Assembly (NCBI GenBank): GCA_903831305.1
Contig: CAIKXE010000011.1
Span: 12,002 to 76,001, forward strand
Source: an uncultured bacterium
Lineage (GTDB): Bacteria > Patescibacteriota > Minisyncoccia > Phycocordibacterales > GWA1-40-21
Direction of reading: 5' to 3'
DNA: 64,000 nucleotides
Part shown: positions 1,190-41,803 of the stretch, in pieces
Numbering within the stretch: position 1 is the stretch's first letter
Layout of the letters: every line of letters starts with the position of its first letter
Translations under genes and position numbers: made by a program
The notes under the pieces: model-generated
What the model saw: the letters and a program-made list of their open reading frames with translations, nothing else
Database searches by the model: none
Told to the model about the DNA's origin: nothing

Positions 1190-2032
1190 TTAATTACAAT
1201 TTAACGCTTTACGCCAACCGGCATCAGTAGCTTCTTTCTCAGTACAGAACCACCTTTCACCCTTACTTTCATCTATCGTTGTTTTAGCATAGGACCCACA
1301 ACCTATCATATGGTAGATCTTTTCCTTTGTTGAGCCAATATTACCCTTGATGGAGCAGGTACTCGTCCCATTTGTCTGGGTAGCTGCACCGGTAGTGGTG
1401 ACCCCAGCCGTTGAGGTAGCGTTTGGACAAACACTATCTCCCCACAGGCCAGCTTTATTAACCTCAGCCTCTTTTTGCGCTTTCTTGAACTCTGACTGAT
1501 ATTTATAGGGCACATCATAAGTATACTCGTAAGCATAGCCCTCCTTAATCATCAGGAGATTAAAACTGGTCCCATCTTCAAGAAAAACATATCTAAGTAA
1601 CCGGTCGTACTTATCTCTTTCGCCAGAAATTATATCAGCTTCCAAATATACTTTCTGACCACTTAAAAGTTTCTTAGCCTTATCTGAGGCTTCTCGTCCA
1701 AAACACTCTACTGGCTTCCTAGGGTCCACTGTTTCCGGTGTGTTTATTCCTATCAGCCTTACTCTCTCTGTTTTACCATCAAGTGAGACATCAATAGTAT
1801 CGCCGTCCACCACTTTGACTACATCAAGCAACTTCAGATCTGTTGTGAGTGGTTTGACAGAAAGACTTGCTCCAGTACTAGAAGCTATGGACCCTGCTAC
1901 CGTATTTATCTGCTCCTTTTTTGTGTTGGTATCATGACTAGATAGGGAGATAAAAATAATTAATAATACAACTGCTATAATTCCTGTAACATACGCCCTA
2001 TTTTTAAAAATATCTTTTATTTTATTGATCAT
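1190..2032 (-). CDS. secreted/membrane-anchored thermonuclease (staphylococcal nuclease, SNase-like) with Cys-containing C-terminal domain
   Basis: N-terminal TM anchor. SNase motifs [42 protein letters not shown]-terminal ...[14 protein letters not shown]...[19 protein letters not shown]... conserved Cys module. Confidence 0.8.
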
Positions 2033-2152
2033 AATAAGGATAGTGTATAACCAAACGTGATACTTCGCAACTTTCCACGGGGCTAATAGTAGGGTGGTAA
2101 AAAGTCAAAAAACGTGTAATAATAAAGGCTATTATAAATATGATATTAAATT

Positions 2153-3949
2153 ATGCAAAAATATACAGTTAATCAGTATTTTGTAAGCAATATATTAAAT
2201 TGGGTTCAAGAAAAGGAAATAGCGATCCCCGAGATTCAGCGACCATTCGTTTGGGATTCAGTGAAGGTCCGTGATTTAATGGACTCTTTATATAAAGGTT
2301 TTCCTATCGGATATATTATTGCGTGGAAGAACCCTGATGTTCGCTTGAAAGATGGAACTATATCAGGTGGTAAAAAAGTATTAATTGATGGCCAGCAACG
2401 CATTACGGCACTTAGGGCGGCGGTTCTTGGTCAAAATATAGTAAATACTGATTACAAAGAAGGACGTATTTATATTGCCTTCCACCCAATTACCGAAGAG
2501 TTCGCAACACTTACACCGGCTATCGAAAAGGACAAGGCTTGGATTCCAGATATTTCTAAGTTAATGACTAAAGATGGCGGACTCTTTCAGGATGTTACAA
2601 ATTATTGTGAAAAAAATCCTGAAGTAAGCAGAGATCTTATAGAAAGGAATATAGAAAAATTACTTCAGATTAAGAGTAAGCAAGTTGGATTTATTGAACT
2701 TGATTCAAATTTGGACATTGAGACGGTCACAGAAATATTTATTCGCATTAACTCCAAAGGGGTAGTCTTAAGTCAGGCGGATTTTGCCATGTCCAAGATT
2801 GCCTCATATGACAATGAAGATAATTTTGGAGTGAACTTAAGAAAGTGTATTGATTATTTCTGTCACCTTTCTCGTGAACCGCATTTTTATAAATACATAA
2901 GTGAGAACGACCAGGAGTTCAGTAAGACCCAGTATCTTTCCAAGATAGCCTGGCTTAAAGATGAAAATGATGATCTGTATGATCCTGATTACTCAGACGT
3001 ATTAAGAGTTAGTTTTACAAAACAGTTTGAAAGAGGAAAGATGGCTGACCTGGTAGGATTACTTTCGGGAAGGAATTTTGAAACAAGGAGTTTTGAGCAA
3101 TCAATAATGGACGAGTCGTTTCAGAAGTTAAGCATGGCTCTATTGGACTTCGTAAACGAAACATATTTTAAAGATTTTGTGATGGCTATCAAGTCCTCCG
3201 GTTTTATAAGCAAGGATTTGGTCAATTCACAAAATACCTTAAACTTTGCATATATTTTATATCTCAAGCTTAGAGAAAAAGGCGTAAACAGGGATGAGAT
3301 TAAACGATTAGTTTCAAGGTGGTTCGTGATGTCTTTATTGACCGGCAGATATTCTGGTTCACCAGAGAGTAAGTTTGATTTTGACATCAAACAGATTTCA
3401 AAGGATGGCGCTGATAAGGTGTTAAAAGCAATTGAGGATGCGGAGCTATCTGATGCTTATTGGAATTTTGGCTTGGTCCAGGCGCTCGATAAGGCTACTA
3501 TAAATAGCCCCTTTCTGAACCTGTTCTTTGCTGCTCAAATTAAGGCTAATGACAGAGGCTTCTTGTCCACGGACATAACGGTGGGAAGCATGATTGAGCA
3601 CAGAGGTGATATACATCATCTATTCCCAAGGGATTATTTGAAATCTAAAGGCTTAGAGCGCGGTGAATATAATCAAATTGCAAACTTTGTGTATGCTCAG
3701 TCGGAAATTAATATCAATATTGGAAACAAAACACCGAAGGGCTACATGCTAGATGTCATTGAGCAGACAATGGGCGGCAAATCAAAGTATGGAGGAATTG
3801 ATAATAAAGAGATTCTGATTGAAAATCTAAGACAGAACTGTATCCCTGAAGGTTTTGAGAAAATGGAAGTCGGTGATTATGAAAATTTTCTTAAAGATAG
3901 GCGTAAGTTGATGGCAAAGAAGATAGAGGGGTATTATAAGAGTTTGTAA
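2153..3949 (+). CDS. GmrSD-family DUF262/DUF1524 protein (type IV restriction-like; ParB-like NTPase/nuclease N-domain + HNH/His-Me C-domain)
   Basis: N-terminal DUF262 hallmarks IPEIQRPFVW and LIDGQQRITAL. C-terminal DUF1524-like HHLFPRDYL. Confidence 0.8.
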   Translation: MQKYTVNQYFVSNILNWVQEKEIAIPEIQRPFVWDSVKVRDLMDSLYKGFPIGYIIAWKNPDVRLKDGTISGGKKVLIDGQQRITALRAAVLGQNIVNTDYKEGRIYIAFHPITEEFATLTPAIEKDKAWIPDISKLMTKDGGLFQDVTNYCEKNPEVSRDLIERNIEKLLQIKSKQVGFIELDSNLDIETVTEIFIRINSKGVVLSQADFAMSKIASYDNEDNFGVNLRKCIDYFCHLSREPHFYKYISENDQEFSKTQYLSKIAWLKDENDDLYDPDYSDVLRVSFTKQFERGKMADLVGLLSGRNFETRSFEQSIMDESFQKLSMALLDFVNETYFKDFVMAIKSSGFISKDLVNSQNTLNFAYILYLKLREKGVNRDEIKRLVSRWFVMSLLTGRYSGSPESKFDFDIKQISKDGADKVLKAIEDAELSDAYWNFGLVQALDKATINSPFLNLFFAAQIKANDRGFLSTDITVGSMIEHRGDIHHLFPRDYLKSKGLERGEYNQIANFVYAQSEININIGNKTPKGYMLDVIEQTMGGKSKYGGIDNKEILIENLRQNCIPEGFEKMEVGDYENFLKDRRKLMAKKIEGYYKSL

Positions 3950-3957
3950 TTGTAATT

Positions 3958-6900
3958 ATGTCTAAAGAGCCTAGAAAAACAAATAAATCTAACGATATAA
4001 ATGAAACTTTTTCATACGGTGTAGTTTATGTTTATTCTATTCCGGACGAAAAACATAAGGGGCGTTTAAAAATCGGTAGTGCAACTATAACTTCAGCCAA
4101 GTCAACTCAAGATGACGTCAATTTAGCTGCTGAAGAGCGAATACAGCAACAAACAAAAACGGCTGATATTTCTTATGTACTTGAGCATGCAGAGCTCGCT
4201 ATTACAAATGACAACTGTTTTTTCCGTGATCATGATGTTCATGAAGTTCTCAAGCGATCAGGTTATGAACGTAAAACAGAGAATGTTAAAAATGCACACT
4301 CGGAGTGGTTTGAAGTTAGTTTAGACGTTGCAAAGAAAGCAATTCAAGCTGTAAAAGAAGGGCGAACAGCATTAATGACTGGAGAAAAAATTGCTCCCAA
4401 GACTTCTGAATTTTCTTTTCGTCCAAACCAGCGCGAAGCGATTGATAAAACTATCAGAGCCATTAAGAAAAATCGCAAACATTTTCTTTGGAATGCAAAG
4501 ATGCGTTTCGGTAAAACATCAGCGGCTATGCAAGTGGCTAAAGAGAATGAAATGAAAAGAGTCATTATCGTCACTCATCGCCCTAGCGTAAGTGTTGATT
4601 GGTACGATGACTTCAACAAAGTATTTATTGGCACAAACTATGAATACTCTTCAAAAACAAAAGGCTTAAATATAAGTACCCTCATGAAAGGTGACAAACC
4701 TTTTGTTTATTTTGCATCTTTACAAGATTTACGCTTATCAAAACGGGTAGTAGAGGATGGGTCCGCTGGATCTAAGGCTGCAGGATTTGATAAAAATGAT
4801 GAAGTTTTTGATACAACCTGGGACATGCTAATTATTGATGAAGCCCATGAGGGAACACAAAGTAATCTCGGGGATGCTACTTTTTTAAAGATACCAACAA
4901 ACTTTACGCTACAGCTTTCCGGCACACCTTTTAATATTCTACATAAGCACGAAGAAGAAGATATATACACCTGGGACTATGTAATGGAACAGGAAGCAAA
5001 GCTCAATTGGGACGAGCGCAATCCCGGAGTACCAAACCCTTATGCTGAACTACCAGCTCTGAGTATTTTTACTTACGACATAGATACATTTGCTAGCCAT
5101 ATTGGTAAATTAGGCGAAGGTTTTCATGATTCCTTAGACGGTGCTTTTAAATTCCATGAGTTTTTCCGTGTACAAAAAGATAATGAGGGTAATGATACTG
5201 CTGAGTTTGTCCATGAGCCGATGGTTAAGAAGTTCTTAGATTTATTGGCTGATGATAAGTTAAAGACAAAATTCCCATACGCGACAGAAGAATACCGTAA
5301 CTATAACAAGCATTCCCTCTGGTTATTACCGAATCGTGTCAAAGTTATTGAAGCAATGGAGAAATTGCTTAAGGACCACCAGATTTTTGGTTCTAATCAA
5401 TTTGGCGTTGTAAATATTTCTGGAGATAGTCGTGATGATGAAGAAGATAAAGACGCCAAGGATCGCGTTACCAAGGCAATTAAAAATTATGACTATACAA
5501 TAACACTAACAGGTCAACGTCTCACAACTGGGGCATCTGTTCCTGAATGGACAGCAATCTTTATGATGTCTGACACAAACTCTGCCACTACCTACTTACA
5601 GACAGCTTTTAGATGTCAAACTCCAGCAAGAATAGATGGTAAGCTAAAAACACAAGGATATGTATTTGATTTTGCTCCAGATCGTACTTTGAAACTGGTC
5701 GCTGAGGCGATAGAGCTTAACCACAAATCAGGAAAGACTAATTCACCAGAACAGAAAGAAGCGATGAGACAATTTCTTAACTTCTGCCCAATTTTAGCCG
5801 CGGAGGGTGGAACAATGAAGCTATATGATGTGGGGAAAATGCTCGTTCAATTGAAAAAAGCCATTATTGAAAGGGTTAGCCGTAATGGTTTTGATGATCC
5901 TAAATTATACAACGATGAGTTGTTACGACTTGATGAGCTAGATGTAGCTAAGTTTAATGCGCTCAAAGCTATTGTTGGTAAATCTACTAGTGAAAGAATA
6001 AACGAAATTGAGATTAACAGTCTTGGTATGACTGATCTCCAAGCAAAGAAAGCAGAAGAAGCTGAACGTAAGAATAAACAAAAGAAAGAGCTATCAGAAG
6101 AAGAAAAGGAAAATTTGAAAAAATTAAAGGAAGCCCGTGAGCAGAAGCAGACGGCTATTAGTATATTACGCGCTGTGAGTATACGTATGCCGATGTTGGT
6201 ATATGGAGCAAATGTATCAATCCACGATGATATAACTTTGCAAAAGTTTATTGAGCTTGTTGATGAAGAGTCTTGGCAAGAGTTTATGCCGGTGGGACTA
6301 ACAAAAGAAAAGTTTAAGGAATTTACTAAATATTATGATGAGGAAGTATTTAAGGGGGTTGCTCACAGTATTCGGGCCAAAGCTTTTGATTGTGATGACC
6401 TCTTACCGACAGATAGAATACGCACAATTTCTGAAATATTCAGCACTTTTAAGAATCCAGACAAGGAAACCGTCCTAACACCTTGGAATGTGGTGAATAT
6501 GCATCTAACCAAAGCTTTTGGTGGCCATGATTTTTGTAGTGAGGTTATAGATAAAAAAGGAAAACCAGAATGGAAGAGTTATAATGTTGATACTAGTGTA
6601 TGGTCCCAGGACGACACAAAGATCCTTGAAATAAATTCAAAGTCTGGTTTGTATCCCTTGTTAGCATGTTATAATGTATATTCGAGACAGCTTAAGAATA
6701 GTAAAGAGAGAAATAAACTAGAAGAGAAGATATTTAGACAAGTATGGAATAAGGTTTTGGCGGATAATATTTTCGTGCTTTGTAAGAGTCCAATGGCTGT
6801 GAGTATCACAAGACGAACGCTTGCCGGATATAGCGGTGCTAGGACGAATATTATTTATATTAAGGACCTGGTTAATAAACTCCAACAGAAAGGTGGTTTT

Positions 6901-7974
6901 AAGGATTATAATTTAAAGAATGAATTATTAGAAAAGTTTAATTTAAAAGATAAAGATATGAAATTCACAGCCGCCGTAGGAAATCCCCCATATCAAATAC
7001 AAACTAAAGATACGAGTGATAATCCTGTCTACCATCTTTTTATGGATGAGTCTTACAAATTAGCAGATAAGGTTGCATTGATTCATCCAGCTCGTTTTTT
7101 ATTTAATGCCGGAAAGACTCCAAAAGAATGGAATAAAAAGATATTAAATGATAAGCATACTAAAGTCATTTTTTATGAACAGCAGTCGTCCAAGGTTTTC
7201 CCGAACACAGATATTAAAGGAGGGATTGCAATAACCTACCATGATATTAGTAAGGATTTTGGTAAAATTGGTTCATTTACTAGTCATCCTGAACTTAAAA
7301 CGATACAGGAGAAAGTCGAGAACCACGACAATTTTGCACCGCTGAGCGGAATGATATACCTACAGAACAAATTTAATCTTGATGCGTTATATAAAGATAA
7401 TCCATCGTTTAAAAAAATAATTGGAAGTAGTGGCAGAGAGAAACGTTTAACTTCTCCAATATTTGAACAACTTAATGTTTTTGTGGATAATCCAAAGCAC
7501 GATACAGATGTTAGAATTTTTGGTTTGATAAAAAATAATCGAACCTATAAATGGATAGGCAAAAACTATTTAGAAAAACATCCGAACTTAGAGAAGTATA
7601 AAGTCTTAGTTGCTAAGGCTAATGGAAGCGGGGCTCTTGGTGAGGTGCTCTCATCTCCTATTATCTGTGAACCTTTTACAGGTTTTACATTTAGTTTTAT
7701 CTCATTTGGCGCCTTTAATGATGAAGATGAAGCTCAAGCGGTTCTAAAATATATCAAAACAAAGTTTGCGCGAACTATGTTGGGAGTATTAAAAATTACA
7801 CAGGATAATCTTCCTAGGACTTGGTCAAAAGTTCCTCTTCAGAATTTCACTAATAAATCTGATATTGATTGGTCGAAATCTATTCCTGAGATAGATAAAC
7901 AACTGTATGCGAAATATGGTCTTGATAAAAAAGAAATAGACTTCATCGAGACACATGTGAAGCCTATGGTTTAA
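3958..7974 (+). CDS. fused T5orf172 (GIY-YIG-superfamily) domain - SF2/SNF2-like DEAH helicase - gamma-class N6-adenine DNA methyltransferase (Type ISP/IIG-like restriction-modification enzyme) with C-terminal putative target-recognition region
   Basis: N-terminus GVVYVYSIPD...GRLKIGSAT...HEVLKRSGYERK...EWFEV (T5orf172 pattern). Helicase motif I FGKTSAA, motif II LIIDEAHEG, motif III LSGTPF and Q/R motif TGQRLTTGAS. MTase motif X-like VLTPWNVVNM, motif I-like ILEINSKSGLYPLLA and motif IV AVGNPPYQ. About 330 aa follow NPPY. Confidence 0.8.
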   Translation: MSKEPRKTNKSNDINETFSYGVVYVYSIPDEKHKGRLKIGSATITSAKSTQDDVNLAAEERIQQQTKTADISYVLEHAELAITNDNCFFRDHDVHEVLKRSGYERKTENVKNAHSEWFEVSLDVAKKAIQAVKEGRTALMTGEKIAPKTSEFSFRPNQREAIDKTIRAIKKNRKHFLWNAKMRFGKTSAAMQVAKENEMKRVIIVTHRPSVSVDWYDDFNKVFIGTNYEYSSKTKGLNISTLMKGDKPFVYFASLQDLRLSKRVVEDGSAGSKAAGFDKNDEVFDTTWDMLIIDEAHEGTQSNLGDATFLKIPTNFTLQLSGTPFNILHKHEEEDIYTWDYVMEQEAKLNWDERNPGVPNPYAELPALSIFTYDIDTFASHIGKLGEGFHDSLDGAFKFHEFFRVQKDNEGNDTAEFVHEPMVKKFLDLLADDKLKTKFPYATEEYRNYNKHSLWLLPNRVKVIEAMEKLLKDHQIFGSNQFGVVNISGDSRDDEEDKDAKDRVTKAIKNYDYTITLTGQRLTTGASVPEWTAIFMMSDTNSATTYLQTAFRCQTPARIDGKLKTQGYVFDFAPDRTLKLVAEAIELNHKSGKTNSPEQKEAMRQFLNFCPILAAEGGTMKLYDVGKMLVQLKKAIIERVSRNGFDDPKLYNDELLRLDELDVAKFNALKAIVGKSTSERINEIEINSLGMTDLQAKKAEEAERKNKQKKELSEEEKENLKKLKEAREQKQTAISILRAVSIRMPMLVYGANVSIHDDITLQKFIELVDEESWQEFMPVGLTKEKFKEFTKYYDEEVFKGVAHSIRAKAFDCDDLLPTDRIRTISEIFSTFKNPDKETVLTPWNVVNMHLTKAFGGHDFCSEVIDKKGKPEWKSYNVDTSVWSQDDTKILEINSKSGLYPLLACYNVYSRQLKNSKERNKLEEKIFRQVWNKVLADNIFVLCKSPMAVSITRRTLAGYSGARTNIIYIKDLVNKLQQKGGFKDYNLKNELLEKFNLKDKDMKFTAAVGNPPYQIQTKDTSDNPVYHLFMDESYKLADKVALIHPARFLFNAGKTPKEWNKKILNDKHTKVIFYEQQSSKVFPNTDIKGGIAITYHDISKDFGKIGSFTSHPELKTIQEKVENHDNFAPLSGMIYLQNKFNLDALYKDNPSFKKIIGSSGREKRLTSPIFEQLNVFVDNPKHDTDVRIFGLIKNNRTYKWIGKNYLEKHPNLEKYKVLVAKANGSGALGEVLSSPIICEPFTGFTFSFISFGAFNDEDEAQAVLKYIKTKFARTMLGVLKITQDNLPRTWSKVPLQNFTNKSDIDWSKSIPEIDKQLYAKYGLDKKEIDFIETHVKPMV

Positions 7975-7977
7975 ATT

Positions 7978-8910
7978 ATGAAAGTCTCGACGCGTAATAT
8001 TGATATACTCGAAAACACGCTTCGTCGTACCGGTGATTTGCTGGATATTCTTCTATTGGACCGCACCACAAAAAAGAATATCATCTGGGCAACAGATTCA
8101 TATGAAAAACATGGCAGAGATTTTTTAGCTAAAACGAGAATCATGCCAGAATTGGTAACTGGTAAGTGTGGCTTGCTCATACAACCACGCGCTGCTAAAA
8201 GTTTGGATGAACAACGTCTACGCACTAAAGACAAGGCTGAGGTTTTTACACCATTAAAGATTGTAGATCAGATGAATAAAATGATTGAGACTGCTGACCA
8301 CAGTAGTCTGCCTAGTAAAAGTAATTGGCAAGAATACGTTCGTGAATTGAAGATTGAGATTACCTGCGGTGAGGCCCCCTTTATTGTTAGTCGCTATAAT
8401 CCAATTGCAAATACTCGCAAAATTATTAAATTAGATAGTCGCGTTGGTTTTTTAGATAGAAAATTGAAAATAGTATCTAAATATTGTCCTACGAAAAAAG
8501 AGTGGTTGTTTTGGGCAAAAGAAGCTTTTAGGGCAAGTTATGGCTATGAATGGCAGGGGGATAATGTGCTGCTTGCGCGTGAGAACTTGTTGTACACGCT
8601 TATTGACTATTACAAAGCTAAATTTAAAGAGAAACCATCTCTCAAGATACAAGAAGAATTTGCGGAAATTATAAGTTGGAATATATTCCAAATGGACGGC
8701 CTGCGGTACGTTATTCCTATGAGTTGCCATCATGAGAGCAGGGTTATTCCTAGTGTAGCTACGCTTTTTGGTGAAATACCAGGTAAGGTTGAGAAGAATG
8801 AATGTGAAGGCTGTAAGTATAATCGTCCAAATAAACACAACGGAAGACATGTCCAAATTATGGATTGGAGTAAGAATAAGGTAGTAAGGTTCGTGGATTT
8901 AATTAAATAA
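7978..8910 (+). CDS. MTase-like protein carrying HsdM/Eco57I-type motif X and motif I but no NPPY catalytic motif; C-terminal Cys/His cluster (putative Zn site)
   Basis: AEVFTPLKIVDQMNKMI matches the G-E-F-F-T-P-x-x-V motif X of gamma-class N6A MTases. EITCGEAPFIV resembles motif I. No (N/D/S)PP(Y/F) anywhere. C-terminal cluster CHHESR...NECEGCKYNRPNKHNGRH. Confidence 0.45.
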   Translation: MKVSTRNIDILENTLRRTGDLLDILLLDRTTKKNIIWATDSYEKHGRDFLAKTRIMPELVTGKCGLLIQPRAAKSLDEQRLRTKDKAEVFTPLKIVDQMNKMIETADHSSLPSKSNWQEYVRELKIEITCGEAPFIVSRYNPIANTRKIIKLDSRVGFLDRKLKIVSKYCPTKKEWLFWAKEAFRASYGYEWQGDNVLLARENLLYTLIDYYKAKFKEKPSLKIQEEFAEIISWNIFQMDGLRYVIPMSCHHESRVIPSVATLFGEIPGKVEKNECEGCKYNRPNKHNGRHVQIMDWSKNKVVRFVDLIK

Positions 8911-8992
8911 GACTAAAATTAGGGGCGTAATATATAAAGTATCCAGTAGTAGGTAGTTACGGCGGTTTAATGGAAAAAATAAGGAAACAAAT

Positions 8993-11900
8993 ATGAAGAC
9001 ATTTTTTTACAAAAATATTATTTTAAAAATAAAGAGCTTTTTTCAAAAGAAAGAAAGGTCCTTATTAGACATAGCAAATAGAGAAAAAAAGAATAATAAA
9101 GAACTAAAACGTATTGTTAAAAATAAACTTCCACCGCTATGGATGCCATCCGTTTCGTCCTTTCTAAGAATATTTTTTGTAATGATGTTTTTTTGGATAA
9201 TTTCACATCCAAAATATTTAGTAGAGTTAATACTTTCACCGTTACATAGTTTGTTTTTACACACACCATTTCTTAAAACGGTAGTTCCTTACATTATAAA
9301 AATGTTTAGCTTATTACCACATTCAATACCTATTATTAGCGAAGGTGGTAATTTATTAGCAGTTCACGCGGGTGTAGGATCTGTTTTGATTGGGTTAGCC
9401 TTTTTTGTTGCACAAAGTTTAACAGACAAGAGCGATTCTGAAAAATCTAGGGTGCTATTGTATAAAAGTTATTTTTTCCCCTTACTGGTAGCTGAGGTAA
9501 TGGCTTTCTTTTTCTTTATTGGAAAGACCAACGTCTTGGTATATATACCGATTGCAGGAATTGCTTTTTGGACTTTGTATTCTTTGGGTAAGGTAATAGA
9601 TATTCTTGTTAAAGAGTATAAAATGGAAGAAGCGAAAAAGAGAGTTCTTTTAAACGTAACAAAAGAGAATTTTATTAGAATATTAGATAGAGAAACAACA
9701 TATAGAATTGGTAATAATTTTATTTATAAAAAATATGAGAGTAGCGGGATTTTAGATGTCAATCCTTTTGGATTTTCCAGAGATAAAAAGACGGTGGTCA
9801 GAATAAAATCACAAAAAAGTGGTGCAATCGTGGATATTAAAATGAACGAGCTTGAGAGATTAATACTACTATTGAGTCAGGCGGTAAAAGTAGATTTTCC
9901 TATAGGAAATGCTGAGACAACTAACGATAATGGGGTCAAAGTTAAAAGTGAATCACTATGTTGTTTATTAACATTACTAGGTCATAAAATAGAATTAGAG
10001 CAGCCATTATTCGAGATCAAAAAAGAAATCGCTGATAAGATTGGTGTGAAAAGATTAGAAAAAATAATCGAGAGAGTGTTTTTAATAAAAGATGACATCT
10101 CAGAAGTTGAGGCACGTACCGAAGTTTTAAAATTAAAGGATAGGTGTATCCTAGCAATAAACAATCAACAAACAGGAGAATTAGAGAAGATAATAAAATT
10201 GTATGTCGAACTTGTTAATGAATTTTCTAAATATTTTAATTTGTATCATGGCGGATGTTTTTCGTCAGAACAAGCAAGACAGGAAAGAAACTCATTTTTT
10301 GAAAGACTTAAGCCTCTAGACTGGATATCAAAAGATATTAGAGAAATTTTTGATAGAGGGATAAATTCTGAAGATCTAAATATTATCAGAGATGTTGCCT
10401 ACTTGCCCATAATGCTGGTGCAACAAGCTATTGAAAGTAAAGACCATCTTATTTTTCAGGAATTCATACCTTATTCTTTGGTTCTGTACGAAAAAGCCTT
10501 TGATTTCTCAAAAAAAGATAGAGAAAAGGAATCAGAGATAATGTTTGATCGGACTTGGCGATATTTGAAGGAACTATCCGCATATTATCTCGAATCAAAA
10601 TTAAAGGAAGAAGATTACCCTGAGGGTGACTTTAAAGACTATTACATCCAGATACTTAAAATTTTACAGGCACTATTAAAGTCATCATTTGATAAGAAGG
10701 ATTTGACTAATTTTAATAAGTTCTTAAAAGTTACCTCAGATTTATTTAACAGATTAGATAGACCGTACTCAAATTCTTCTTATACTAATACTGAAAAAGT
10801 CTTTAATCTTCTAGACGGTAAACGTCAGGAAATGTTCTTTGGGGTTTCTAGTTGGATTTTATTTATCTTAAAGAACAATAAAGATCTCCAGGTCAGAGAA
10901 TTTTATAATGCAGTACAAAATGAATTACCTTCAGATATCATCGAATTCACAAGGGTGTTTTTACAATCTCATAGTTTTGATACCGAAGATCATTGGGGTT
11001 GGGATTGGTGGGAATCCAGGCCGGATGAGGGCGTACATACGATAAATGTACTTGAAAAACTTGAGCAATTCTTTGTGGTTAGACTATTGATATTATTAGG
11101 ATCAAAAAGTGACCAAGAAATTGAAAAAATTAGTTTACCTCATAATAGGGATTTAGCTTTTCTTGCCGAAGGAACAAGAGACGCAATCAAGATTATAGAT
11201 GATATTGAAAAAAACCCTGGTAATTGGACTTTTATTTTAGATAGCGAATCTGTAAAAAGATGTCTAGCATTACGTAATCTACTTAAAAAAGCACATGATC
11301 AGCAGGAACAAGATGATTTAAGGTGTAAACGTGAAGCTGATATTTCAAGAGATAAAGTTGAAAAATTTAAGAAGTATTTTATTGAAAATTATAAACAGAG
11401 TCATCCAATCAAAGAGATGTTAAAAGACTTTGGTCTTCTTTCAAATAAAACCAATAAAAAAGTTGGAAAAGAGATAAAAAAACTGGGAATTAATACTTTG
11501 TTTGATAAAGGTGCTTTTTTGGGTGATGAGGTCAATTGGTACATTCATTATACGGGAATTAAAGAAGCTTTTGGTTTTGGTAGGAGTATGGTTTATGGTG
11601 AGAATGAATATGTTCTTGGAAAAATCAGAGGTAAAGCTAAAGAAATAACAGAAGATAGGTTTGAAAATACTTTGGCGGGGATCCAATTATCTAACATCGT
11701 CCTTATTGCTACAAACCATGCTGTATGGAAGTTCTTTGAGAGATCAAATAGTAATTGGATACCTAAGTGGCATAGCGAATTTCCTAAAGAGCTCTTCGGT
11801 AATCAAATAATTGAAGGTGTCTACAGATTTAAAGATAAAATCATTCCGGTCTATCAGCTATTTACTTCAGGTTCTAGTAGTTCAGATATCTTTATTTTAG

Positions 11901-12190
11901 ATAAAACTAAAATTGGGAAATTGGTACAATTTTCTCCACTTGAGGATGGTGATAGTACAGATGTATTGTTCGATGTTTTCCTTATAGATGTTCAGGAATT
12001 TATTTTAAACTCTACCTTAATTACCGAATTTATTGATAAGCCTCCACAGTGGCTGTCGGATATTGGTAATAAAGAGAAACAGATTGAACATCTGCAAGAG
12101 TGTGTTTTGATTCATGTCTTTGAAAAAATTCAATTTAAACTTCACAATGAATTTAGTGGGTATATATTACTAACAGATAAGATAAAATAA
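8993..12190 (+). CDS. large (1065 aa) hypothetical protein, N-terminal multi-pass membrane region plus ~850-aa predicted cytoplasmic alpha-rich domain; no recognisable catalytic motif
   Basis: Hydrophobic segments LRIFFVMMFFWIISHP, VLIGLAFFVAQSL, VAEVMAFFFFIG and IPIAGIAFWTLYSLG in the first ~200 aa. The remainder is K/E-rich with no Walker A, HxK or PD-(D/E)xK motif seen. Confidence 0.6.
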   Translation: MKTFFYKNIILKIKSFFQKKERSLLDIANREKKNNKELKRIVKNKLPPLWMPSVSSFLRIFFVMMFFWIISHPKYLVELILSPLHSLFLHTPFLKTVVPYIIKMFSLLPHSIPIISEGGNLLAVHAGVGSVLIGLAFFVAQSLTDKSDSEKSRVLLYKSYFFPLLVAEVMAFFFFIGKTNVLVYIPIAGIAFWTLYSLGKVIDILVKEYKMEEAKKRVLLNVTKENFIRILDRETTYRIGNNFIYKKYESSGILDVNPFGFSRDKKTVVRIKSQKSGAIVDIKMNELERLILLLSQAVKVDFPIGNAETTNDNGVKVKSESLCCLLTLLGHKIELEQPLFEIKKEIADKIGVKRLEKIIERVFLIKDDISEVEARTEVLKLKDRCILAINNQQTGELEKIIKLYVELVNEFSKYFNLYHGGCFSSEQARQERNSFFERLKPLDWISKDIREIFDRGINSEDLNIIRDVAYLPIMLVQQAIESKDHLIFQEFIPYSLVLYEKAFDFSKKDREKESEIMFDRTWRYLKELSAYYLESKLKEEDYPEGDFKDYYIQILKILQALLKSSFDKKDLTNFNKFLKVTSDLFNRLDRPYSNSSYTNTEKVFNLLDGKRQEMFFGVSSWILFILKNNKDLQVREFYNAVQNELPSDIIEFTRVFLQSHSFDTEDHWGWDWWESRPDEGVHTINVLEKLEQFFVVRLLILLGSKSDQEIEKISLPHNRDLAFLAEGTRDAIKIIDDIEKNPGNWTFILDSESVKRCLALRNLLKKAHDQQEQDDLRCKREADISRDKVEKFKKYFIENYKQSHPIKEMLKDFGLLSNKTNKKVGKEIKKLGINTLFDKGAFLGDEVNWYIHYTGIKEAFGFGRSMVYGENEYVLGKIRGKAKEITEDRFENTLAGIQLSNIVLIATNHAVWKFFERSNSNWIPKWHSEFPKELFGNQIIEGVYRFKDKIIPVYQLFTSGSSSSDIFILDKTKIGKLVQFSPLEDGDSTDVLFDVFLIDVQEFILNSTLITEFIDKPPQWLSDIGNKEKQIEHLQECVLIHVFEKIQFKLHNEFSGYILLTDKIK

Positions 12191-12193
12191 TTT

Positions 12194-13696
12194 ATGAAGC
12201 CCATATCCAAATCTCTATTCCTTCAATACTTAATCTGTCCTAAAGACGCGTGGTTTAGGCTGCACCAGCCGGACCTGGAGGAATTTAATGTCTCCTTTTC
12301 GGACCAAAATGTGATGGCCCAGGGTAATGTGGTGGAGGATTGTGCTAAGAAACTTAAGATATTCTCCGGTTTTGTGGAAGTCAAAAGCCGGGCTTTCTCG
12401 GCCAGCAAGGAGATAGACAAGCTGATTGCTGAAGAAGTACCAGCAATCTATCAGCCAACCTTCAGCGTTGATGGTTTTATAATCCGCTGTGACTTTCTGG
12501 TTTGGAATGCCAAAACCAAGAAATGGGACTTATACGAGGTTAAAGGTACAAATTCCAAGAAGGATGACGATGGACCGCGGGACCATATCTCTGATCTAGC
12601 TTTCCAAACAATTGTGCTGGAGCGATACGGTCTTAGCATCGGTAGTAAATATATTGTTCATTTGAACAAAGAATACGTTAGGGGTAAGGAGCTGGATGTT
12701 GAAGAACTCTTTGTTATTAATGATAGCACCGAGCAGGTAGAACTAAAGAAAGCTACTACCGATGCGCAGATGGAGAAAGCTAAGGCGTATTTGAATCAAG
12801 AGGATGAGCCTAAAGACGGCTGTAACTGTCATTTATTAGGTAGAAGTAATCATTGTGAGACATTTAAGAAATCACACCCCGAGATACCGGATTATTCCGT
12901 CCATGATATATCCAGGATAGGTTCAACGCCTGATAAGCTGATTCAACTGGTCAAGAACGGTATCTATCATCTCCACGAAGCGGAAGACATATCTGATTTT
13001 ACCATTCCCCAACAAAACCAGATTCAGGCCCATAAGACAAAGAAAGAGATAATTGTCAGAGAAGAAATTGCTAATATTCTGGACAATTATACCTATCCGC
13101 TGTACTTCTTTGATTATGAGACCTTTGCACCTGCCGTGCCTATCTATGAAGGATTTAGCTCATATCAGCGTATACCAATCCAATTTTCCTTGCATATTAT
13201 TGAAAAGATGGCCGGACCTGTCCGTCATCTGGACTATCTTCACCTAGAGAATACTGACCCTTCAGAAACTGTTGCTAAGATGCTAGGCGAGGTCATAGAT
13301 CCTAAAGGAACAGTCCTGGCCTGGAATGTCTCTTTTGAGAAAGGCGTTACATCGGAGATAGCGGAAAGACTGCCTAAGTATGAGCCGGTGATAACGAGGA
13401 TTTGTGGCCAGATGAGAGACCTTCGGGATATTTTTTCCCAGCAGCATTATGTCCATAAGGATTTTAAAGGGAAAACCTCAATTGAAGCTGTTATGAACGT
13501 GTTATTGCCAGATATGACTTATGATCATTTACCATATACTGGTAGTGATGTGGGTTTTGTCTGGTGGAATGATATAGTCAATCAAGGTAAGGAACCTTCT
13601 GAAAGGGAGGAGAAGATACATCTAATCCGGGAATACTGTAAACAAGATACTTTTGTAATGGTGGAGATTTTTAGAATATTGAATAGTATTATATAA
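12194..13696 (+). CDS. two-domain nuclease: Cas4/RecB-like PD-(D/E)xK domain with Fe-S Cys cluster + DnaQ-like DEDDy 3'-5' exonuclease domain (DUF2779-like architecture)
   Basis: The Cys arrangement C15...CNCHLLGRSNHC (C-x-C-x8-C) matches Cas4/AddB Fe-S clusters. PD-(D/E)xK-like ...DGFIIRCDFLVW...WDLYEVKG. Exo I YFFDYETFAP, Exo II-like AWNVSFEKG and Exo III YCKQDTF. Confidence 0.65.
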   Translation: MKPISKSLFLQYLICPKDAWFRLHQPDLEEFNVSFSDQNVMAQGNVVEDCAKKLKIFSGFVEVKSRAFSASKEIDKLIAEEVPAIYQPTFSVDGFIIRCDFLVWNAKTKKWDLYEVKGTNSKKDDDGPRDHISDLAFQTIVLERYGLSIGSKYIVHLNKEYVRGKELDVEELFVINDSTEQVELKKATTDAQMEKAKAYLNQEDEPKDGCNCHLLGRSNHCETFKKSHPEIPDYSVHDISRIGSTPDKLIQLVKNGIYHLHEAEDISDFTIPQQNQIQAHKTKKEIIVREEIANILDNYTYPLYFFDYETFAPAVPIYEGFSSYQRIPIQFSLHIIEKMAGPVRHLDYLHLENTDPSETVAKMLGEVIDPKGTVLAWNVSFEKGVTSEIAERLPKYEPVITRICGQMRDLRDIFSQQHYVHKDFKGKTSIEAVMNVLLPDMTYDHLPYTGSDVGFVWWNDIVNQGKEPSEREEKIHLIREYCKQDTFVMVEIFRILNSII

Positions 13697-39790: not shown

Positions 39791-41803
39791 ATGCAAACAT
39801 TAAATCTTGATAATATTGAGACAATAATCGGCCACTGGGGAGAATTTAAAACAAATGCTCTGGAGCTTTTGGACAGGATGTTAGAATCATACCCAAATAA
39901 TGTAATTTTGTTACAGAATAGAGGATCCGTCTTAAATGACCGTGGTGAATTTCAAGAAGCAATAAATAATTCCGATAAATTGCTAGAGATTGATAGTCAA
40001 AATATAACGGCATTAAATAGTTTGGGGTATGCGCTGAGAAAGCTTGATAGGAATCAAGATGCAATTAGGATTCTTGATGAAGCACTTAAAATAGACCCTC
40101 AGAATTTAAATGCTCTAAACAATAAAGGTGTTGCTCTCAGTAATATGAATAAAAATCAGGAGGCTATCGAATTATATAATGAGATTCTAAAAATTGACCC
40201 GAGTTTTGAATATGCACTAAATAATAGAGAATATGCTCAAAAAAGTCTAAAAAAAGATAGCATTTTTTTAGGGAGTGATTTTGAGAATGCTATAAATCTA
40301 ATGAATGAAACGAACGGTAATCTATTTTTAACGGGTAGTGCTGGTACTGGAAAATCTACAGCAATTGAGTATTTTAGAAAAAAAACAAAGAAAAAAATTG
40401 TGATTCTAGCACCGACAGGTGTCGCCGCTTTAAATGTCGGGGGTGAAACGATCCATTCATTTTTTCATTTTGGCATCGATATTACCCCAGATTCTGTTAA
40501 AAAAAATGATTTGCTAAACCAAGGTAACGATATTTACAGGAATATAGACACAATAGTAATAGATGAAATATCAATGGTCAGGGCTGATTTGATGGATTGT
40601 GTAGATAAATTCATGAGGCTTAATGGTAAGGATGCTAATAAACCTTTTGGCGGTGTGCAGATTATACTTGTTGGTGATCCGTACCAGCTTCCACCAGTTG
40701 TCACAAAAGATGAAGAAGAACTATTCACTTCATATTATAAAAGCCCATATTTTTTTGATTCAAAAGTTTTTAGTCAAGCAGCATTCTTGTTTGTTGAGCT
40801 TAAAAAAATATATCGACAAAATGATTTGAAATTTATACAAACATTGGAAGCTTTTCGTCTTGGTCAATTTACTGGGAGTCATTTAGAATTGATAAATACG
40901 AGGTATTCAAGCCAGGCCTTATCTGAGCACGATTTACATATTAATCTTGTATCAACCAATGCTGTGGCAGATGCAATTAATAATAAAAGGCTTTCTAAGT
41001 TATCAACTAAACAATACATATCCACAGCTATGGTAACTGGAAGGTTTGATAGGAATCCACCAGCAAATAAAGAGCTACTTATTAAGGAGGGGTCAAAAAT
41101 AATGTTGTTAAAAAATGATCCGGGTGATAGGTGGGTTAATGGTGATCTTGGTGAAATAGTCAGTATTAAAGAAGAAAATAGTCAGATAAAAGAAATTGTA
41201 ATAAAGCTTGATGATAAATCGGAACATATTATCAATCGTATAACTTGGGAAAAAATCAAATTTTTTTACAACAGAAATACTAAATCGATTGAAACAGAGG
41301 TTATAGGCACCTTTACTCAATTTCCTATAAAATTAGCCTGGGCGGTTACGATCCATAAAGGTCAAGGTAAAACATACAAAAATATGGTTGTGAATTTTGG
41401 AAGAAGAACTTTTGCTCATGGGCAAGCATACGTAGCAATAAGTAGGTGTCAAAGCTTAGGTGGCTTATTTCTCACTACTCCATTAAGAAAGGATGATGTT
41501 TTAATTGACAAAAGAGTGTGCGAATTCATGGAAAGTAATATCTGTTCTGAAAAAGTAAACTCTAAGTCTCCAGAAAATGAACTAATGGGTCTCGTAGAAA
41601 GACAGGGGCAAGAATTAGGAGAATTTAGAAAGTTTTTTTCTGACATCGCACCACTCCTAGATAAACTAGATAAGAGTCCTGAAATTGTACAGGCGATTAT
41701 GAATGGAAGAATAACAACAGACATAGCTAAAGCTCTCACTGAAGATAATTTAAATCCTAAAGAAGCCCCAGAAAAAATTAATCCCAATGACATTCCGTTT
41801 TAA
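39791..41803 (+). CDS. TPR-repeat domain fused to PIF1/RecD-like SF1 helicase
   Basis: N-terminal TPR-like repeats (NLNALNNKGVAL...). Walker A LTGSAGTGKST. Walker B IVIDEISMV. ILVGDPYQLPPV, AVTIHKGQGKTY, YVAISRCQS. Confidence 0.8.
   Translation: MQTLNLDNIETIIGHWGEFKTNALELLDRMLESYPNNVILLQNRGSVLNDRGEFQEAINNSDKLLEIDSQNITALNSLGYALRKLDRNQDAIRILDEALKIDPQNLNALNNKGVALSNMNKNQEAIELYNEILKIDPSFEYALNNREYAQKSLKKDSIFLGSDFENAINLMNETNGNLFLTGSAGTGKSTAIEYFRKKTKKKIVILAPTGVAALNVGGETIHSFFHFGIDITPDSVKKNDLLNQGNDIYRNIDTIVIDEISMVRADLMDCVDKFMRLNGKDANKPFGGVQIILVGDPYQLPPVVTKDEEELFTSYYKSPYFFDSKVFSQAAFLFVELKKIYRQNDLKFIQTLEAFRLGQFTGSHLELINTRYSSQALSEHDLHINLVSTNAVADAINNKRLSKLSTKQYISTAMVTGRFDRNPPANKELLIKEGSKIMLLKNDPGDRWVNGDLGEIVSIKEENSQIKEIVIKLDDKSEHIINRITWEKIKFFYNRNTKSIETEVIGTFTQFPIKLAWAVTIHKGQGKTYKNMVVNFGRRTFAHGQAYVAISRCQSLGGLFLTTPLRKDDVLIDKRVCEFMESNICSEKVNSKSPENELMGLVERQGQELGEFRKFFSDIAPLLDKLDKSPEIVQAIMNGRITTDIAKALTEDNLNPKEAPEKINPNDIPF

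Follow-up and report, generated by a model that had tools for sequence, protein, structure and literature searches.

What kind of enzyme carries a nuclease, a helicase and an adenine methyltransferase (MTase) on one polypeptide, and does it work alone? The question is raised by an open reading frame (ORF), hereafter "the fusion", in a stretch of 64,000 nucleotides from an uncultured Patescibacteriota bacterium (GenBank assembly GCA_903831305.1, contig CAIKXE010000011.1, positions 12,002 to 76,001 of the forward strand; "the window", in which all positions of the list below are counted). An earlier reading of the letters alone, the original prediction, had described a single-chain enzyme and an unusual swap of the nuclease domain on a Type ISP restriction enzyme. 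Our answer is different: the fusion and a 310-aa partner gene directly downstream probably make up a restriction-modification (R-M) system of two genes, ATP-dependent and equipped with a GIY-YIG nuclease. The partner would be an obligatory subunit of it, and we best read this system as a widespread kind of R-M and not as a one-off oddity. In evidence are the domains, their conservation, the diversification of the target recognition domain (TRD), the linkage of the two genes and the homology to systems in which modification (M) and restriction (R) genes are split. The two genes and the parts of the fusion are as follows:

3958..7974, + strand: fusion ORF, 1338 aa, ATG start; GIY-YIG-type nuclease, superfamily 2 (SF2) helicase, linker, gamma-class N6-adenine MTase and TRD
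4006..4362, + strand: T5orf172 / GIY-YIG-type nuclease head (aa 17-135)
4411..5907, + strand: SF2 helicase-like motor (aa 152-650)
5908..6453, + strand: conserved linker (aa 651-832), with a charged Lys/Glu-rich stretch at about aa 690-735
6454..6957, + strand: MTase lobe before the NPPY motif, called "R-type" below (aa 833-1000)
6958..7242, + strand: catalytic lobe of the MTase (aa 1001-1095), with motif IV NPPY at aa 1009-1012, supported by the Eco57I Pfam match
7243..7722, + strand: hypervariable TRD (about aa 1096-1255)
7723..7974, + strand: conserved C-terminal segment past the TRD (aa 1256-1338)
7978..8910, + strand: partner gene, 310 aa, starting 3 nt past the stop codon of the fusion

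All three domains of the fusion score above the curated Pfam thresholds: T5orf172 (PF10544, aa 24-132) at 32.7 bits for a cut-off of 20, ResIII (PF04851, aa 152-325) at 60.6 bits and Eco57I (PF07669, aa 937-1081) at 80.6 bits. Every motif quoted in the original prediction was located where expected, that is, GVVYVYS (aa 21-27), KIGSAT (aa 38-43) and EWF (aa 116-118) in the head, GKT (aa 185-187), DEAH (aa 294-297), SGTP (aa 321-324) and Q548..R552 in the motor, and VLTPWNVVNM (aa 839-848) and AVGNPPYQ (aa 1006-1013), followed by 325 aa, in the MTase. Conservation was read from two alignments, one of 120 close homologues and one of 74 divergent relatives sharing 38-71% identity and spanning at least 10 phyla; in the latter, Y24, K38, G40, R61, D91, E116, the Walker A motif, DEAH, SGT, Q548, R552 and NPPY are all invariant. 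Given more than 8000 homologues, the best 120 of which are near full-length, the architecture as judged from sequence is far beyond chance. The content and order of the domains, the GIY-YIG-type head and the C-terminal TRD were thus correctly foreseen, as borne out by the Pfam thresholds, the invariant residues and the hypervariability of the TRD.

Whether the head is a nuclease was one of the points on which the original prediction had made itself depend. Its candidate catalytic residues are Y24, R61, H95 and E116, with K38-I-G in place of the "YIG" motif; Y24, K38-I-G40, R61 and E116 are invariant in both alignments, and H95 is nearly so (71 of the 74 divergent relatives). An AlphaFold model of aa 1-150, computed from a two-clade alignment, has a predicted local distance difference test score (pLDDT) of 81.9, mostly above 85 over aa 20-140, and a beta-beta-alpha-beta-alpha-alpha topology, which is the alpha/beta fold of GIY-YIG nucleases; Y24 lies in strand 1, K38-I-G40 in strand 2, R61 in helix 1 and H95 in helix 2. 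Judging from their position in this model, Y24, R61 and E116 may well play catalytic roles. A Foldseek comparison with predicted viral structures (BFVD) returned, at a probability of about 1.0, mostly proteins that carry the name T5orf172 or GIY-YIG nuclease, and the same comparison with the PDB returned no match. The structural support is consistent but modest, and it agrees with Pfam: the head models as a GIY-YIG/T5orf172 fold in which the candidate catalytic residues are kept. In phage ICP1, T5orf172 domains have been proven to be nucleases (PMC8263062).

The motor carries motifs I (GKT, aa 185-187), II (DEAH, aa 294-297), III (SGT, aa 321-323), V (TTG, aa 523-525) and VI (Q548..R552), invariant in 74/74 divergent relatives. 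The linker that follows has a conservation of 0.77-0.92 among close relatives and is homologous, from about aa 725 on, to the tail of the split R proteins described below; it is a possible coupler of motor and MTase.

The MTase part is more peculiar. Its motifs come in the order X (841), I (891-899) and IV (1009). In the R-type lobe we find motif X (DKETVLTPW), an atypical motif I (LEINSKSGLYP) and a beta2-like segment (IFVLCKSP). Motif I reads ILEINSKSGLYP (aa 889-900), with K895 where the first Gly of GxG is normally found, and the position of motif II holds C942/K943 where an acidic residue is usual. The residues of this lobe are invariant across the 74 relatives. Since aa 937-1011 alone match Eco57I at 33.1 bits, the segment before NPPY is a true MTase domain. 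NPPY itself is kept in 74/74. Column conservation in the same alignment then drops to 0.13-0.43 over aa 1100-1250, against 0.55-0.75 elsewhere, and there are pairs of enzymes, such as P0007 and P0010, that share 94% identity over aa 150-1090 and only 35% in the TRD segment. This is the signature of a specificity that would diversify by swapping the TRD between near-identical enzymes, as in R-M systems.

Does the fusion act alone? The original prediction overlooked the partner gene, and its single-chain enzyme does not hold in this respect: a partner homologue adjoins the fusion on the same strand in 72 of the 80 species-representative genomes, and in six or seven of the eight loci without it the relevant flank is lost at a contig end. 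The sole locus with adequate flanks and yet no partner match (L052) shows strong fusion-like matches over 1213-9903, more than twice the length of one gene, together with a DUF262 ORF at the contig edge, and may be a duplicated or rearranged copy. A partner homologue of 306-315 aa lies within a few nt 3' of the fusion in five independent metagenomic or genomic contexts; on Firmicutes plasmids (about 40% identity), it lies upstream of the fusion instead, its position thus flipping between clades. On the 10-kb Pediococcus plasmid pRS5, the fusion-partner pair is the only cargo besides replication, toxin-antitoxin and integrase genes. From this linkage we infer that the partner is needed. Scans for promoters and terminators gave no excess over shuffled sequences, and an operon is suggested only because the gaps are so short, 8 nt between the preceding gene and the fusion and 3 nt between the fusion and the partner.

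The partner has motifs X (EVFTP, aa 88-92), I (LEITCGEAPFI, aa 126-136), II (VGFLD, aa 156-160) and III (NIFQMDG, aa 235-241) and an invariant Cys/His cluster (C250, H252, C276, C279, H287). It has no NPPY or other (D/N/S)PP(Y/F/W) motif, no TRD and no Pfam match. The partner family comprises 1630 clusters at 50% identity, and 35 of 61 divergent members are about 630-720 aa long and continue into KFDxxIGNPPYQ, a Pfam Eco57I domain and a TRD; the partner of the window stops about seven residues short of the point where these full-length relatives enter beta4-NPPY. The partner is thus the N-terminal lobe of an Eco57I-type gamma MTase without its catalytic lobe, and its sequence cannot be that of a complete MTase on its own.

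Two variants of the pair should be mentioned here. Relatives from Lactococcus plasmids (pUC047G, L001, 1970-7049; pUCCL635C, L002, 1396-6462), at about 45% identity, have a fusion extended by about 120 aa at the N-terminus, where DUF4145 matches weakly, and a partner of just 230-234 aa with weak N6_Mtase/MmeI_Mtase matches; from its length, this partner appears to be devoid of the C-terminal Cys/His cluster. No characterisation of these relatives was found in the lactococcal literature and its supplements. In a metagenomic protein of 1125 aa (P0345), a partner-like segment (aa 30-269) runs in frame into about residue 26 of the fusion (…MDGLKFVVPNS-HKGLLKIG…), and at the junction the Cys/His cluster and nuclease strand 1 are lost. 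It may have arisen by a deletion in nature or be an artefact of assembly; as a single, deletion-like sequence with a truncated C-terminus, it was given no weight as a Rosetta-stone fusion.

The closest relatives of the pair are systems split in another place. One full-length partner relative (P0249, 670 aa) is followed by a 1116-aa ResIII protein, stop and start codons overlapping; pairs of an M protein of 666-675 aa and an R protein of 1120 aa were seen in two further contexts, making three in all (L013, L095 and L097; Clostridia/Christensenellales), and split R proteins are numerous and vary very little in length. Fusion aa 22-645 match the split R at 35% identity (E 4e-94), and fusion aa 985-1337 match aa 306-669 of P0249, the C-half of M, at 35% identity (E 5e-54). 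The split R ends at the equivalent of about aa 997 of the fusion, directly before beta4-NPPY, and its tail is homologous to fusion aa 725-972, motif X and the KSGLY loop included (hhalign, Prob 96.5, E 7e-10). The split systems are true homologues of the fusion, the N-half of M being the counterpart of the partner. It follows from these matches that each type of system holds two different pre-NPPY lobes and one NPPY+TRD lobe, and the two types differ in which lobe is covalently joined to the catalytic part: the R-type lobe in the fusion, the partner-type lobe in the split M, the split R thus ending in an orphan MTase lobe. When the partner family was aligned by hhalign with fusion aa 820-1005 or aa 700-1100, motif X alone aligned, at a non-significant E of 0.05-0.18; homology of the two types of N-lobe is therefore not demonstrated beyond motif X.

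Serine resolvase/recombinase genes directly adjoin split systems (L013, 4707-5297; L095, 2099-2692 and 9153-10088), which raises the possibility of mobility, or of a DNA inversion affecting the M gene. The PADLOC model PDLC03375 (MTase_II, 348 positions) covers fusion aa 999-1337 alone, the NPPY lobe and TRD; such an extent would imply that stand-alone catalytic-lobe ORFs exist too, a third way of distributing the lobes.

How would the two proteins of the window work together? We infer all enzymatic activities, the formation of a complex, translocation, the place of cleavage and the role of the partner, and the scheme would run as follows. The TRD and the Eco57I-type MTase would read a specific DNA sequence and methylate adenine through NPPY, marking the DNA of the host; at an unmodified site, the SF2 motor would hydrolyse ATP and communicate along the DNA, and the N-terminal GIY-YIG-type nuclease would cut at a distance from the site. 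The 310-aa partner would bind the fusion as an obligatory subunit and complete or regulate the methylase, for example as a licence dependent on S-adenosylmethionine (SAM). The most interesting point is the role of this half-MTase and the permutation of the lobes. A speculative idea, to which we give only limited credit, is that the MTase is modular and effectively split, one NPPY+TRD lobe serving the R-type and the M-type SAM-binding lobe (the latter with the Cys/His cluster) as alternatives; evolution would have attached it to either, and the free 310-aa lobe of the window would act in trans, complementing the catalytic lobe or competing with a degenerate lobe in cis. If this were true, the assembly of two polypeptides would decide between methylation and restriction, a new control logic for R-M enzymes.

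Some points weigh against a two-gene restriction system. Because motifs I and II of the N-lobe of the fusion are atypical (K895, C942), SAM binding in cis is not assured; the AlphaFold2 model of the partner, built from 25 close homologues, is unusable (pLDDT 53); no characterisation of the fusion family or of the partner was found in the literature; and the loosely analogous dnmA-yeeB-yeeC cluster of Bacillus subtilis, whose DnmA is an orphan MTase, showed neither restriction nor phage defence (PMC9973331). This last case also speaks for a system that neither cleaves nor defends, be it an epigenetic or orphan methylase or a BREX-like block without cutting, in which T5orf172 would just bind DNA; its original description was as a DNA-binding domain, by which several of the BFVD matches are named. 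A role in binding alone, however, does not explain the invariance of Y24, R61 and E116, or the near-invariance of H95 (71/74), over at least 10 phyla, and the swapping of the TRD and the setting in defence islands and on plasmids are typical of restriction systems, so that we consider a non-cleaving system unlikely. The database labels of the partner ("MTase_II", "restriction endonuclease subunit M" or "restriction endonuclease") imply something else again, an independent second methyltransferase for the other strand, as M.Eco57I is to Eco57I. The partner does match the PADLOC MTase_II model PDLC03390 (306 bits, 7e-92) and keeps motifs X, I, II and III; for a protein that ends before beta4-NPPY and is devoid of any (D/N/S)PP(Y/F/W) motif, TRD or Pfam MTase match, we nevertheless find such a role very improbable.

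There remains the self-sufficient, single-chain Type ISP enzyme of the LlaGI/LlaBIII lineage, its Mrr nuclease replaced by T5orf172, which would translocate in one direction and cleave upon head-on collision. The order of its modules, nuclease-helicase-MTase-TRD, is that of LlaGI (PMC3553950). In a search of all PDB chains with the protein (phmmer) and with the family profile (hmmsearch), neither LlaGI/LlaBIII nor MmeI nor any other chain was found at E ≤ 0.1, the best match being Snf2 motif II-III at E = 0.12. The PDB includes LlaBIII/LlaGI chains, in line with a literature citation of Kulkarni (2016). In addition, the partner gene is near-obligatory, and the systems most closely related to the fusion come as two genes, M and R, with the same GIY-YIG head and helicase already present in the R protein. 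The nuclease swap on a Type ISP enzyme thus finds no support in these comparisons, and we hold this origin to be quite improbable; a two-gene system with an obligatory partner remains the reading that we favour.

The system is not unusual either, as the original prediction had supposed. Relatives occur in at least 578 of the 185,579 species genomes, and the carriers listed belong to Patescibacteria, Bacteroidota, Bacillota, Spirochaetota, Verrucomicrobiota, Planctomycetota, Synergistota, Pseudomonadota and other phyla; the family is particularly frequent in gut Bacteroidota and Bacillota, in bacteria of the candidate phyla radiation and on plasmids of lactic acid bacteria. It is also labelled in databases: NCBI names the fusion an Eco57I-domain protein, and PADLOC matches it solely with REase_MTase_IIG (168 bits) and MTase_II models, over about aa 962-1337. 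With these models alone, membership in DISARM, BREX or Hma was rejected. NCBIfam gave no match to the fusion, and NCBIfam and PHROGs none for its head or for the partner. Such a class had even been foreseen: Morgan et al. (2009) pointed to uncharacterised "large single polypeptides" that combine endonuclease, helicase, MTase and TRD, as well as GIY-YIG/helicase partners of MmeI-like MTases (PMC2731913), and Sisakova et al. (2013) referred to relatives that have helicase domains together with GIY-YIG nucleases (PMC3553950). Between metagenome-assembled genomes of Patescibacteria, Saprospiraceae, Parabacteroides and Planctomycetes, identity is 67-91% for the fusion as well as for the partner (P0002-P0120 and P0121-P0240), far above the expectation for hosts so distant, which suggests recent and frequent horizontal transfer of a two-gene module.

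The window itself is bacterial chromosome, with genes for Ddl, ProRS, GatB, RNR, LepA and tRNAs. Its first 15 kb or so form a defence island, in which the fusion and its partner have these neighbours:

292-1188, - strand: NERD protein
1190-2032, - strand: SNase-domain protein, matching PADLOC "SNc+LTD"
2153..3949, + strand: GmrSD_N/DUF262 protein, 598 aa (Pfam 111.5 bits; PADLOC HEC-05), ending 8 nt before the fusion
8993-12190, + strand: 1065-aa ORF, 82 nt downstream of the partner
12194-13696, + strand: DUF2779/Cas4-like protein

The DUF262/GmrSD gene adjoins the fusion in five of seven contexts inspected by hand. It is adjacent in only 2 of the 80 loci when these are searched by tblastn and hidden Markov models, and was therefore rejected as a third core component; it is a recurrent island neighbour. 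The 1065-aa ORF, which has no match in Pfam, NCBIfam, PADLOC or PHROGs, accompanies the system only in contigs near-identical to the window (L003, L004), not in the other contexts. Elsewhere in the window, 39791-41803 (+ strand) encodes a 670-aa protein with N-terminal TPR repeats and a PIF1-like helicase.

To our knowledge, every ATP-dependent R-M enzyme that has been studied (Types I, ISP and III) has a PD-(D/E)xK nuclease. The abundant fusion family, found across phyla, couples a motor to a GIY-YIG nuclease instead, and databases call it just Type IIG or "Eco57I-domain protein". To characterise it would extend R-M biology by a mechanistic class and put right the annotation of the partner, now called a methyltransferase or a restriction endonuclease although it is neither on its own; it would also test whether an MTase can be controlled by spreading two lobes over two polypeptides. 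Cultured carriers exist, among them Alistipes putredinis DSM 17216, Parabacteroides massiliensis SN4, Thomasclavelia saccharogumia DSM 17460 and the Pediococcus plasmid pRS5, so the question is directly testable.

How does the system compare with known ones? Like Type IIG enzymes of the Eco57I family, the fusion joins an Eco57I-family MTase with a C-terminal TRD to a nuclease; classical Type IIG enzymes, however, lack a helicase motor and cleave at a short, fixed distance, whereas the fusion has an invariant SF2 motor of about 500 aa. The split relatives, with a mod-like gene directly before a helicase-nuclease gene, resemble Type III systems (Mod/Res), and the asymmetric pair of MTase lobes loosely recalls the Type III Mod dimer, whose protomers have different roles. 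Type III Res has its nuclease, a PD-(D/E)xK domain, at the C-terminus, and Mod belongs to the beta class of MTases; in the fusion, the nuclease is N-terminal and GIY-YIG, and the order of the motifs is gamma-class. The parts list of the fusion is also that of DnmA(YeeA)-YeeB-YeeC of B. subtilis and Vibrio crassostreae, where a gamma-type adenine MTase that has a TRD stands beside an SF2 helicase and a T5orf172/GIY-YIG protein; such clusters frequently lie in defence islands. These are three separate proteins with an MmeI-like MTase, whereas that of the fusion is Eco57I-like and gives no MmeI-family Pfam match at E ≤ 0.01.

The fusion also resembles the Type ISP enzymes LlaGI and LlaBIII of Lactococcus plasmids: on one polypeptide, a nuclease is followed by an SF2 ATPase, then by a gamma-class N6-adenine MTase and last by a TRD, and in both cases defence is borne by plasmids or islands. 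By analogy, the fusion probably works in a similar mode, with site recognition followed by ATP-driven communication along the DNA. The Type ISP nuclease, however, is an Mrr-type PD-(D/E)xK domain where the fusion has T5orf172/GIY-YIG, and Type ISP enzymes act alone where the fusion family has a conserved partner. Type ISP enzymes are further defined by translocation in one direction, cleavage upon head-on collision and methylation of a single strand. The fusion is thus Type ISP-like in outline and not a member of that lineage, from which it differs in its nuclease, in its sequence and in its tie to a second gene.

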